A stretch of DNA of 64,000 nt from Clostridiales bacterium DTU072 (GCA_001512685.1 LFSG01000046.1:17707-81706); one strand, 5' to 3'. Positions 59,001 through 60,770 are shown, counted from the first letter of the stretch. The notes: a model not told the origin generated them from the sequence alone. Numbers and translations: made by a program.

Positions 59001-60026
59001 GAGGAAGATTTTGCGGTAACAGGTTATGACAAAACTAAAATAGGGGTGCAAAATATTACCGTTACATATATAGTAACGGGAGATTTTTGGACTTATCAGG
59101 TCGAGGTAAGGAATAAAATACAAAGAATTGTTGTGGATTATGAAAAATCAAAGCTGATATACGCTTTGGGAGAGCCTCTTTCCATCGTTATGTATTGCGA
59201 ATATGTCAACGGGGAACAGTCTTTGATTACCGATTCGTTCATTCATGATTTCGATAGTACGAAAATCGGGGTTCAGCAAATAAATATCAGTTATTGGGGA
59301 ACTTACAGCGTCACTTTAATTGTGGAAGTAATAGATATTCCCGTGGAGATTCAACTTATCGCTCCCGCCAAAAAATACTACGATTACGGCCAAACGCTGG
59401 ATTTAAGCGGGGGCAAGGTGATTCTGACTACCAAGAGCGGCACCAAAAAAACCTTAAGCATTTCGGCGTATGAAGATTATTTGACGCCCTTTAATCCCAC
59501 GCCTTCAAAAGGAGGAGCGCAGGTAATATTCTTGAATTTGACTCAATTCGGGCTTTCCACAAGCTTCAAGGTTTATGTAAGAGAAAAAAACGCCAGTCCG
59601 CTGCTTGTGCTTAATGAAGGCGTGCAAGGCGTAAAGATTGACAGAATCAATACCAGAATAATTTTTGACGAAGGAACTATTTTTGCCGAATTTATGGACA
59701 AGGTAAATTCCTATGCCGATATCCTTTGCAAAAAGAAGGACGGAAGCTATATGGATATCGTCTATGACCAAAATATGTTTTTGAATTCCGACATATCGAT
59801 AGAAATAAGAAATTCCGAAGGCGCTTTGCTGGAAGCTTTCAGCGTATACGTCAAAGGCGACGCCGACAAGAACGGAATATTGGACCAAAACGATATTCCT
59901 TTGCTTGCTCAGGCATTGCTGCAAAACACAAGCAACGCGGCGATATACGCCGATTACAACGGCGACGGCGTATATACGCTTACAGACTTTGTTTTGTGGA
60001 CGCAAAAAGCCAAACAGCTTCAATAA
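53091..60026 (+). CDS. Secreted multidomain protein (2311 aa): M6 (immune inhibitor A-like) metalloprotease, RCC1 propeller, Big_2, RCC1 propeller, Big_2, ~9 Ig-like repeats, dockerin
   Basis: Evidence along the protein:
- N-terminal signal/anchor helix.
- M6 blocks: …YYYKLSYGKINVE…, GGMLWPHSWDL, HEFAHVLGVPDLY (HEXXH codons 54057-54071), GNWDLM.
- ~36-aa RCC1-type blades: 6 in ~55265-55900 and 7 in ~56223-57000.
- Two Big_2 units (…KIGQTYQLNPTVLPYNAT…SSGNPEKVSVTADGLITALQVGTAVIT…).
- Ig-like repeats of the type …YYYGEEIDLGGG…, …YDYGQTLDLSGGKV….
- C-terminal dockerin. Confidence 0.9.
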   Translation: MKKKAKITYIAILTLFILALAFFAMEGFEDRRLSPQGEIVGKNTFRQTMVQADGVTVEFFASGDQYFNYLHDKDGYILLRHNGYLVYAKEKNGRPMPSSVKYTDSREKIDALDKMVYSDIDFSLNPDLITEYPEQQSSALYQSAQSHQPIINIVIFICFAGETVNLDRQLIDGYLNGSENSLADYYYKLSYGKINVESVYPQTSGDNIYVYQDSNPRSYYQLKEGASNRARRESQLLNSAVAASRYYFDLQGLDIDTDNDGFVDSVNFLISGTPYSSWGGMLWPHSWDLYDISNGNSQTINGLRVRKYSFNFLEQLTVGLLAHEFAHVLGVPDLYHYNDSHAAVGNWDLMHYEADIPQFMTTHLRYKYLNVVNDCQIGIVEYNGVYSLKPVTAASPHDIVAYRINTDKSDEYFMVEFRNNNIAGYDASLPGAGLIIYRIKQGVYGNSEALKHNAQKPDEVYIFRPNVVTTGSEATKSLGNLNKAYLSPHNPDFYKVGSSLQQKPNSYFDSDTLYYTNGRNSGISIEAIAINDDQIIFEVKLSGVDNVDNNYFLNKLSIENAKLNNDSQFSGVYADLNVSDINLSYLKSLYATLKSQSGNEITVVHLDRNKFVEAYQSGLRSFAVRFVVNRKGSSLISVFYDAQWNNFNEPATMELYAVDSDNDNIKIGEYDINKSYASWASIEMTGMAYKPSVDASMTSTVIVKKDGRAVVSSVNPSLDRLSIEGVISASIGAYHLLCVKSDLKVWAYGNMNQGENNVGDWTNIIKAVAGEHTSYGLDYKGNVYCAGQNTLTGVNEWRDIIDISAGEKHIVGLQANGRVLALGNNEYQQCQVSEWTDIVAIAAGHKFTAGLKKNGKVVIAGELSDAYLAQGWSDIKKIAAGENHLLAIDGGGKVYAAGENFHGQCNVQDIYDIIQIAAGKDHSVMLREDGEIIYAGHIEHDLLDDNLIYINDDYVEVTSITSPFDKKILKIGQTYQLNPTVLPYNATYKKMTYSSGNPEKVSVTADGLITALQVGTAVITGRHRGSELKITVEITVQEPINTKAMIAAGDKHSVILDNSGTVYSSGSNDYGQLDVNMWGNVVFVAAGGNTTIGITPENKLLVAGEMAGMGAEQWTDIVFAATSGNAIVGITQSGICKAIGDDDYKQVTTYISERTDIKAVALSSTHIVALKKNGTVIAFGNNSSGQTEVGHWRKVAQIAAGEGFSLGLTEEGEVLYAGASPYVQDMTIIEGWKDIVYIAAGPYHIAAVDFDGNVYAVGNNSHGQTDAGGLENIGLIACGGAHTVGIDFYGVTAGIGRNYDGRLHLPDVNELPYIELNDITFEEESYSDDVIFGVKIGEKRKLNPVFNPFNATDRKSQNITYISSAPAIASVDQRGFITGMSAGSAVVTMTVRGNGEQKTASIQVRVYSNAISVSIAQQPFKTVYRYGERLSLLGGRAIVRISSETSYSKKITKDMIENYDTVTNAYGNVMVKVRDGQAFAKYEITVVNVTQSIEITDISNLKTIYYYGEEIDLGGGWVTRTLADGSKLDAQTMQSLDDGKGSLEIIADTHILASTFVTLKYTDPDPIALKAGIVNVIYISFEIAVFDKVIGITPNLSKSVFAYGEEIFGNGELIIKMQSGADIIEPIIRKTDIEDGEDSVIVIEGYDKYVLGAQNVKFRYYNPDFDIPLSLYPQVSVTVEDSVSHLIVTSMMLNDAAVYDSNKHYDQSILARVSFYGGAVIDVGNVDGQPLFENIHLGFDDYQQGDGFENINMHVWVKNTLGGYSKLYTVVQKVFGLSSVEELQLIGQSSFKYGEETDLRLWIKVGNDTEYTIEIDDWVLGVDNTLLTPQTISFTLMGKTAQKTIQFFDYVTGIYTRQLNITVIVGQEYNQIPLDVYCVMASGAEQTVQNWTMSNYDKNKLGTQYVTVNYTFNYEQFHYNITVNVIDVIDEIRVLSSPKTLYEVYQDLDLSDFSIRLIFRQSTPQDIHYNEEDFAVTGYDKTKIGVQNITVTYIVTGDFWTYQVEVRNKIQRIVVDYEKSKLIYALGEPLSIVMYCEYVNGEQSLITDSFIHDFDSTKIGVQQINISYWGTYSVTLIVEVIDIPVEIQLIAPAKKYYDYGQTLDLSGGKVILTTKSGTKKTLSISAYEDYLTPFNPTPSKGGAQVIFLNLTQFGLSTSFKVYVREKNASPLLVLNEGVQGVKIDRINTRIIFDEGTIFAEFMDKVNSYADILCKKKDGSYMDIVYDQNMFLNSDISIEIRNSEGALLEAFSVYVKGDADKNGILDQNDIPLLAQALLQNTSNAAIYADYNGDGVYTLTDFVLWTQKAKQLQ
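59850..60023 (+). other. Type I-like dockerin module (two Ca-binding F-hand segments)
   Basis: GDADKNGILDQNDIPLLAQALL … ADYNGDGVYTLTDFVLWTQ matches the duplicated D.N.DG.I…D…L pattern of dockerins. Confidence 0.75.
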
Positions 60027-60041
60027 AGAGGGGTGGAGCGA

Positions 60042-60770
60042 ATGAAAAAAATATTGGCGGCGTTATTTATTTTGATTTTCTCGTTTTGCTTGGCGGGCTG
60101 CCGAGATAAGCAGATAAAAGCAGGCGACATAAGCTATATAGAAATACAGAAAGGCTCTTTCAAAACAGTTTATAATGTGGACGAGAAAATAAACTTCGAC
60201 AATGTTTATATCGTCATTGTGTTAAAAAACGATAAAGGCCACATCGTGCAGAAAGTAACTCCGGATATGCTTGAAGGCTTTGACACTTCCACTACCACAG
60301 GGCCTACCCAAAGGCGCTCCATGAGAGTCAAATACTTGGGCATGTATACTTCATATTGGGATTATGTGGTGGTAAGCGAATATAATATTATTACCAAGGC
60401 GCGGCTTAAGCTGAATGAAAAAATAGAAGGCGACAACTTCTTTGTTACCTTGAATTTGGATTTTCAGGATTTAAGCCCCGTTTACGCTTTCATGATGACC
60501 GTAAGGTTTGACAGCTCCCAATTGGACTATAATGACGATGTGCTTTTGTATAACAGCGGCTGGGAATTGGAAAAAAGGAACATAAATCCGGGGAGCTTCA
60601 CCTTTATTTATTATTGCGGTAAAGAAGGCCGAGCGGTTGTCCAAAGCGGCGATCTGTTGAGGTTTTGCTTTAATAAAAAGGTAGCAGGAAGCGTCAATGT
60701 GGAAATAGAGGAAATCACATTGAGCGACGGAAATAACGACATCAATCTTCCCGATGTAAAATTAATATAA
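60042..60770 (+). CDS. Lipoprotein with one Ig-like repeat and a C-terminal cohesin-like domain
   Basis: ATG at 60042 (GGTGGAG upstream), 15 nt after the protease stop. Lipobox FSFCLAGC. The first ~85 mature residues repeat the Ig-like unit of the upstream protein (…FKTVYNVDEKINFDN…VKYLGMYTSYWDYVV). The rest (…FFVTLNLDFQDLSPVYAFMMTVRFDSSQLDYND…GSFTFIYYCG…GDLLRFCFNKK…VEIEEITLSDGN) follows the cohesin beta-sandwich pattern by eye. Confidence 0.75.
   Translation: MKKILAALFILIFSFCLAGCRDKQIKAGDISYIEIQKGSFKTVYNVDEKINFDNVYIVIVLKNDKGHIVQKVTPDMLEGFDTSTTTGPTQRRSMRVKYLGMYTSYWDYVVVSEYNIITKARLKLNEKIEGDNFFVTLNLDFQDLSPVYAFMMTVRFDSSQLDYNDDVLLYNSGWELEKRNINPGSFTFIYYCGKEGRAVVQSGDLLRFCFNKKVAGSVNVEIEEITLSDGNNDINLPDVKLI

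Follow-up and report, generated by a model that had tools for sequence, protein, structure and literature searches.

The window analyzed in this work is a stretch of 64,000 nucleotides (nt) from the genome of Clostridiales bacterium DTU072 (GCA_001512685.1 LFSG01000046.1:17707-81706). It carries two adjacent genes, one for a giant M6 metalloprotease that ends in a dockerin and the other for a small lipoprotein with a single cohesin; from our analyses we conclude that these genes probably encode a cognate, non-cellulosomal cohesin-dockerin pair, which would tether the tail of the protease at the membrane. This reading is built on the observed identities of the domains, the lipobox and the conserved adjacency of the two genes, and from these we infer the binding, its stoichiometry and the topology of the complex. 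Held more tentatively, as something possible that falls a little short of probable, is the proposal that the pair exemplifies a widespread minimal surface-display module of the Clostridia, in which a lipid-anchored single cohesin and a cognate dockerin-tailed M6 metalloprotease form a translationally coupled pair that is inherited together.

Results

The two genes and their junction

The protease gene (53091..60026, plus strand, as are all the features of the pair given below) encodes a protein of 2311 amino acids (aa) in which an M6 metalloprotease domain is followed by RCC1 propellers, Big_2/Big_3 repeats and the dockerin. The gene of the cohesin lipoprotein (60042..60770, 242 aa) starts with the ATG at position 60042; the open reading frames (ORFs) and the 15-nt gap reported in the initial annotation were thus recovered at the same positions. 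The intergenic spacer (60027..60041) includes the Shine-Dalgarno-like sequence AGAGGGG, and no terminator-like hairpin was found in these 15 nt between the two genes. The top-scoring promoter-like site of the scanned region, TTGACT-18-TATAAT (53025..53054), is placed 37 nt 5' of the protease ATG; as far as an 11/12 match to the consensus can tell, transcription of the protease and lipoprotein genes as one unit may begin there.

The C-terminal dockerin of the protease

Dockerins consist of two tandem segments of ~22 residues, each with a Ca-binding loop (D/N at positions 1, 3, 5, 9 and 12) followed by a helix. At the end of the protease (59853..60023) we found segment 1, DADKNGILDQNDIPLLAQALLQ, a 9-aa linker and segment 2, DYNGDGVYTLTDFVLWTQKAKQ; the two segments (DADKNGILDQND... 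and DYNGDGVYTLTD...) have 22 residues each and retain D/N at the Ca-binding positions. The isolated 64-aa module matches PF00404 with 26.7 bits, over the gathering score of 22.9, as do 11/11 orthologous modules from related loci (best E 8e-9), and when a profile of these 11 modules was compared with the PDB sequences the top 14 matches were all dockerins (best E 2e-6). The same kind of search against a word index of 5.8 billion proteins returned 3 short fragments. On the strength of these profile matches the C-terminal module is a dockerin, in agreement with the duplicated segment that had been noticed at the end of the protease.

Across 11 lineages there is no variation at positions 1 and 12 in either Ca-binding loop, nor at position 5 in the second loop. 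The two segments are unlike each other (Q-N vs L-T at positions 10-11), and the second helix, [ST]LTD[FIL][VI]xW, is better conserved; because of this dissimilarity and of the better-conserved helix, the module suggests a single binding mode via the second dockerin helix.

Domain architecture of the protease

The protein begins with a putative signal sequence or signal anchor (53091..53165), MKKKAK followed by 19 uncharged hydrophobic residues, which lacks a lipobox Cys. The M6 (InhA-like) catalytic domain comprises residues 176-438 (53616..54404) and contains, at residue 323, the sequence HEFAHVLGVPD (54057-54089), an intact version of the zinc motif HEXXHXXGXXD. Given this motif and a TIGR03296 match of 120.6 bits (cut-off 110.8), the protein is classified as a zinc metalloprotease of the M6/InhA type. 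Next come two RCC1-type beta-propellers with a Big_2 domain between them (residues ~700-1300, 55200..57000, boundaries approximate), where Pfam recognizes three WD40_RLD stretches (best 718-945), Big_2 at 957-1020 and RCC1_2 at, for example, 1046-1072, and then a stalk of Big_3-like Ig repeats (residues ~1405-2170, 57300..59600, boundaries approximate). In the whole protease ten stretches match RCC1_2, two match Big_2 and four match Big_3, the best of the latter being residues 1937-1993. The mass of the protein is ~255 kDa, and the names that it has at NCBI are only 'Ig-like domain-containing' or 'M6 family metalloprotease-like'. In the related loci L022-L027 the lipoproteins are 100% identical to that of the window and the protease has 2308-2311 aa, which indicates small indel variation of the giant gene within the species.

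A lipoprotein with a C-terminal cohesin

The start of the lipoprotein, MKKILAALFILIFSFCLAGC, is a standard lipoprotein signal peptide (60042..60101), with a positively charged n-region and a hydrophobic core, whose lipobox, L-A-G-C, conforms to the pattern [LVI][ASTVI][GAS]C; Cys20 is encoded at nt 60099-60101. The LAGC lipobox had already been pointed out, and its cysteine turned out to be the sole invariant column in an alignment of 76 family members. No Pfam match to the S-layer homology (SLH) domain was found in the lipoprotein, and neither LPXTG nor a hydrophobic tail is present at its terminus (...NLPDVKLI).

Residues ~28-112 (60123..60377) form a Big_3-like Ig domain that is the best-conserved part of the protein (mean pairwise identity 0.58). 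The initial annotation regarded this domain as one more copy of the repeat found in the protease. With its profile we obtained strong matches to repeats of other proteins annotated by Pfam as Big_3, as well as matches to the protease at residues 1417-1470, 1495-1531, 1927-1999 and 2014-2081, hence both belong to the same domain class; a recent copy, in contrast, is not what we observed, given that the domain is only distantly similar to protease repeat 1413-1465 (28% identity, BLASTP E 1e-4).

The cohesin occupies the rest of the protein (residues ~118-242, 60393..60767), where a cohesin pattern had been proposed for the last ~125 aa. PF00963 is matched at the level of the family, by 5/5 close homologues of the lipoprotein (best E 4e-10), and was already present in the precomputed annotation for most of its homologues; the lipoprotein of the window by itself stays just under the gathering score (22.2 bits vs 24.1). 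A model of the lipoprotein obtained with AlphaFold2 (AF2) from 14 family members has a predicted local distance difference test (pLDDT) score of 89.6 and shows two beta-sandwich domains, the cohesin being a nine-stranded beta-sandwich of residues 121-241. Compared with the PDB by Foldseek, the model retrieved cohesins almost exclusively, with 2jh2 and 2vo8 at the top (E 1e-7, TM-score 0.75-0.78); after these Clostridium perfringens structures came cellulosomal type I and type II cohesins and an Archaeoglobus cohesin, among further matches that include 6kgd, 5nrk, 4ums and 2xdh. At the level of sequence, a phmmer search of the PDB sequences with the single lipoprotein gave no match, and the family profile touched only the C. 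perfringens cohesins, weakly (E 0.3). The homologue matches and the modelled fold together identify the C-terminal domain as a cohesin, and the name of the lipoprotein at NCBI is already 'cohesin domain-containing protein [Christensenellales bacterium]'.

Conservation of the gene pair

The pair is shared by many uncultured Clostridia: a dockerin-ending M6 protease is encoded directly 5' of the cohesin lipoprotein in 17/17 lineages examined, where the identity of the lipoprotein falls to ~25%; homologues at 41-50% identity share the gene order. The scan for dockerins and cohesins covered the window and 10-kb flanks of the related loci, and it found one dockerin and one cohesin, adjacent to each other, in the window and in 27/27 related loci. 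An 18th case (P0060, 2343 aa, from a representative library) is a single gene call in which the M6-RCC1-Big-dockerin protein is followed by a linker of ~90 residues and the cohesin lipoprotein. The latter retains an internal signal peptide and a lipobox, followed by the Big_3-like domain and the cohesin; two genes have probably been merged in this entry by the gene call, although it could be a real fusion.

The most divergent loci carry most of the weight. At locus L007, whose lipoprotein is 28% identical, the upstream giant gene is replaced and the order protease-dockerin, cohesin lipoprotein and GH20 gene is kept. A subfamily that is ~25% identical was reached by a metagenome scan, for which a 23-sequence subfamily was used as query in place of the too-diverse 76-sequence alignment; six full-length loci were obtained and the upstream ORF ends in a dockerin in 6/6. 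In these loci the partner is a short form of ~960-1000 aa, with M6, Big_3 and dockerin domains and without RCC1. Since the pair is conserved in the 17 lineages and in P0060, the module persists where both the genes 5' of it and the other parts of the protease differ. An exhaustive profile search of the lipoprotein family gave 1230 matches, 244 of them at E<=1e-10; among the best 150 matches, 90 are full-length proteins of 205-275 aa, so that at least 90 clusters (50% identity) have the ~240-aa architecture.

The junction of the two genes is tight in most lineages, with an overlap of 1-11 nt, and in 7/11 related lineages the stop codon of the first gene overlaps the start codon of the second (ATGA or TAATG/TGATG); linkage of this kind would favour the co-production of the partners. 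The mean identity over 11 lineages is 0.34 for the cohesin, which is the fastest-evolving domain, 0.50 for the dockerin and 0.58 for the Ig domain. Pairwise distances of cohesin and dockerin in these lineages are correlated when the Ig domain is controlled for (partial r 0.53), a value that would fit co-divergence and is indicative only, all the domains sharing one phylogeny.

The arrangement of a Big_3-like domain with a cohesin directly after it recurs in other organisms, inside large proteins (P0111, P0140, P0042, P0123 and P0153) which have several cohesins, BspA-type leucine-rich repeats and a C-terminal dockerin, and which resemble adaptor scaffoldins; this di-domain appears to be a reusable unit.

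Genomic context

In the 64-kb window no further dockerin or cohesin was detected using local hidden Markov models built from the families, which found exactly one of each. Neither a dockerin-bearing glycoside hydrolase (GH) nor a scaffoldin, that is, a protein with at least two cohesins, was found within the window and the flanks of the related loci; together these components would denote a cellulosome or a mucinolysome. The surroundings are thus non-cellulosomal, as previously noted: the GH20 enzyme and a GH38-like protein of the window carry no dockerin. The former, a beta-N-acetylhexosaminidase (60791..62260, plus strand) without signal peptide, is syntenic in most lineages and absent from L028, L032 and L033, and is probably not a part of the tether.

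Directly 5' of the protease there are three consecutive lipoprotein ORFs on the plus strand, at 20554-22725, 22989-33881 and 33899-52927 (723, 3630 and 6342 aa), with the lipoboxes VVAC, IVAC and MISC, respectively. No Pfam match at E<=0.01, no dockerin and no cohesin was found in these three proteins. The largest one is kept in close relatives and missing at the distant locus L007. The upstream giant lipoproteins were considered as additional cargo of the cohesin and this idea was discarded, given that they have no dockerin and are absent from L007.

On the 3' side, the stop codon of the GH20 gene is overlapped by a gene for a P2-type (Ca-ATPase-like) P-type ATPase with the DKTGT motif (62257-64000, plus strand), which runs off the end of the window. 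This ATPase is present in the clade of the window and in L007 and was not found in the short-form subfamily; a Ca pump gene beside a gene for a Ca-dependent dockerin is suggestive. All lineages, those of the ~25%-identical subfamily among them, also share a conserved cluster 3' of the pair, formed by the optional GH20 gene, a gene for a protein of ~545 aa and a gene for an S26 signal peptidase I (L022 10750-17102, from the same species and beyond the window end; L030 8725-12424; L033 1022-3232). In the ~545-aa protein no Pfam match, transmembrane segment or signal peptide was found, and in some loci its gene adjoins that of the cohesin lipoprotein directly. The signal peptidase gene lies a few genes 3' of the pair in all lineages, and it may encode a housekeeping enzyme.

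Other genes of the window seem to be unrelated to the pair, i.e. those for a BspA-type leucine-rich-repeat protein (9727-11085, minus strand), a DUF5054/GH38-like protein (17515-19572, minus strand) and a Cu/Zn superoxide dismutase (19742-20218, plus strand), and the remaining ones are housekeeping genes. The genome is that of an uncultured bacterium of the Clostridia, of the Christensenellales type, found in anaerobic-digester metagenomes among other places.

Discussion

According to the mechanism that we propose, the lipoprotein would be exported, lipidated on Cys20 and placed at the external side of the cytoplasmic membrane in a monoderm cell of the Clostridia, where its Big_3-like spacer would hold the single cohesin a few nanometres over the membrane. 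The protease would be exported through its N-terminal signal, and its Ca-binding C-terminal dockerin would plug into the cohesin of the lipoprotein, by which the tail of the ~255-kDa protein would be fixed at the membrane, with the Ig-repeat stalk, the two RCC1 propellers and the M6 head projecting outward through the wall. An N-terminal catalytic head, a repeat stalk and a C-terminal anchor make up the layout of Gram-positive wall-anchored surface proteins; in the proposed complex the non-covalent contact with the lipoprotein would stand in for LPXTG and sortase.

Several observations weigh against this tether, and they are considered here together with the explanations that they would favour. 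In the clade of the window, the N-terminus of the protease carries an uncharged hydrophobic stretch of 16-23 residues with no obvious cleavage site of the AXA type; if this stretch is a signal anchor, it would keep the protease at the membrane with no need of the cohesin. Moreover, 3/4 short-form proteases (~980 aa, M6, Big_3 and dockerin) have an N-terminal lipobox, ISSC, VSAC or SASC (L030 5066-8011, L031 5075-8002 and L032 5059-7941), so that in these lineages both members of the pair would be lipoproteins, and the pair is kept even where the protease has a lipid anchor of its own. Accordingly, the cohesin-dockerin contact could form without being the anchor: the N-terminus would already hold the protease in the membrane (by lipidation in the short forms, as a signal anchor in the long ones), and the lipoprotein would pin the C-terminus as a second point, giving a membrane-bound arch or acting as an assembly, positioning or regulatory partner. 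We regard this explanation as unlikely, albeit worth keeping in mind. The cysteine is not conserved in the clade of the window (L001 has F there), cleavable signal peptides of Gram-positive bacteria commonly have long hydrophobic cores as well, and the signal peptidase I gene of the cluster, unless it encodes a housekeeping enzyme, would fit signal cleavage. The initial annotation had presented the pair as a device that anchors the protease to the membrane; the domains, the lipobox and the adjacency in 17 lineages agree with this, and what becomes uncertain is the role of the lipoprotein as the sole anchor, given the lipoboxes of the short forms. If some of the partner proteases are indeed lipoproteins, the contact may exceed retention, as a two-point membrane arch or by gating the activity of the protease.

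The adjacency of the genes also has to be weighed, because within the clade of the window synteny reaches the housekeeping genes SpoIIE and TilS, which makes adjacency inside this clade weak evidence; it is L007 and the distant subfamily that sustain the argument for pairing. The cohesin subtype, in addition, is not exclusive to this lipoprotein: its profile also matches, in other organisms, scaffoldin-like proteins with 5-7 cohesins and adaptor-like proteins in which cohesin, Big_3 and dockerin are combined. Around 1.5% of human-gut metagenome-assembled genomes carry both cohesins and dockerins, and dockerin-bearing peptidases occur in such systems (PMC12997984). From this it could be proposed that the lipoprotein is a general docking site, or that the dockerin is part of a larger cellulosome- or mucinolysome-like system encoded elsewhere in the genome, adjacency being not exclusive. 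This is improbable in our judgment, since only one dockerin and one cohesin are present in the window and in each related locus, the upstream partner is always an M6 protease whatever else varies, and there is one lipoprotein locus per genome (one genome per species, in a scan that finds this subfamily only). The dedicated 1:1 pairing read in the initial annotation may apply, within the reach of a scan of the window and of 10-kb flanks.

Less credible still is the explanation that the modules do not interact at all, the dockerin being a Ca-binding stabilizing tail, the cohesin-like domain a generic beta-sandwich spacer or a ligand-binding domain, and the gene order inherited synteny. It would account for the fact that in the native proteins both Pfam matches are under the gathering score (PF00404 on the full-length protease, 18.2 bits vs 22.9; PF00963 on the lipoprotein of the window alone, 22.2 bits vs 24.1), and for the EF-hand proteins that appear, below the dockerins, among the weaker PDB matches of the dockerin profile. 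The AF2 model of the dockerin region is of no help to our proposal either: from an alignment of 4 sequences it reached a pLDDT of 49 and is unusable, with two helices at the expected places. To our knowledge, many non-cellulosomal dockerins have no known partner. Nevertheless, the scores are clear at the level of the families, the fold match is specific to cohesins, and an adjacency that persists at 25% identity, with proteases of two widely differing architectures, is not easily understood unless the modules have a function in common. The tethering of the protease by the lipoprotein therefore continues to be the reading that we prefer. Assigning the partner from gene order, as was done in the initial annotation, holds to the extent that the pair looks cognate, being adjacent in 17/17 lineages; anchoring would be its putative purpose.

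As far as we know, non-cellulosomal cohesin-dockerin pairs are common in genomes, although a partner or a purpose has hardly ever been assigned to them. In the present case the partner is indicated by a gene order that deep divergence has left intact, and the question is reduced to a testable system of two proteins, with a dockerin of 64 aa and a cohesin of 125 aa. If our proposal is correct, it would reveal the way in which giant proteases are displayed by Christensenellales-type bacteria, little-known inhabitants of digesters and guts, and an orthogonal cohesin-dockerin pair would be of practical value for surface display and for the design of protein complexes. The understanding of the cohesin-dockerin mechanism itself is left unchanged, and to a cellulosome specialist the system would be mechanistically unsurprising.

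The cohesins structurally closest to the modelled one are those of C. perfringens, from GH84C/NagJ (2jh2, 2o4e, 2ozn) and GH33/NanJ (2vo8), with only ~15% sequence identity. As in C. perfringens, secreted hydrolytic proteins would be joined by a cohesin-dockerin contact that has no part in plant cell-wall degradation. In that bacterium, however, both modules are found inside large secreted enzymes and establish enzyme-enzyme links, whereas the pair of the window has its cohesin on a small lipoprotein dedicated to it and its dockerin on the metalloprotease encoded by the adjacent gene. With the InhA-type M6 peptidases the protease shares the TIGR03296 catalytic domain and the intact zinc motif, and differs from them by the addition of two RCC1 propellers, the Big_2/Big_3 repeats and the C-terminal dockerin, to a total of 2311 aa. 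In the literature searched, a limited collection, we found no paper that brings together dockerin, cohesin and 'immune inhibitor A', and no description of a module formed by an M6-dockerin protein and a cohesin lipoprotein.

Among cellulosome-like systems, the Limousia-type mucinolysome was considered and rejected as a description of these genes; the genus is of another lineage, and neither the multi-cohesin scaffoldins nor the dockerin-bearing glycoside hydrolases of its system were found here in the window and flanks. A closer likeness is found in the anchoring scaffoldins, i.e. SdbA/OlpB of C. thermocellum (SLH), ScaE of R. flavefaciens (sortase) and cSca5 of Limousia, in which a cell-bound cohesin receives a C-terminal dockerin (PMC5817068; PMC12997984) and a secreted component is thereby fixed to the surface. 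In contrast to them, the lipoprotein described here has an N-terminal lipid anchor, a single cohesin and one protease as its putative cargo, and there is no scaffoldin loaded with glycoside hydrolases. In the same limited collection no description of a lipoprotein-anchored cohesin was found, which is not proof of absence; if our proposal is correct, lipid anchoring would join SLH domains and sortase as a way of fixing cohesins to cells, and the lipoprotein would be the first natural cohesin anchored in this manner. The precedent for assigning partners from gene order is ClcC/ClcD of Cellulosilyticum lentocellum, a single cohesin and a single dockerin encoded by adjacent genes (Clole_2599 and Clole_2598) for which the heterodimer has been demonstrated (PMC13487519). 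Both systems consist of adjacent one-cohesin and one-dockerin genes; in C. lentocellum, however, the parts are of a cellulosomal kind, with a GH5 cellulase that bears the dockerin and a carbohydrate-binding module on the protein with the cohesin, whereas the pair reported in this work is formed by a protease and a lipoprotein without any carbohydrate-active module.

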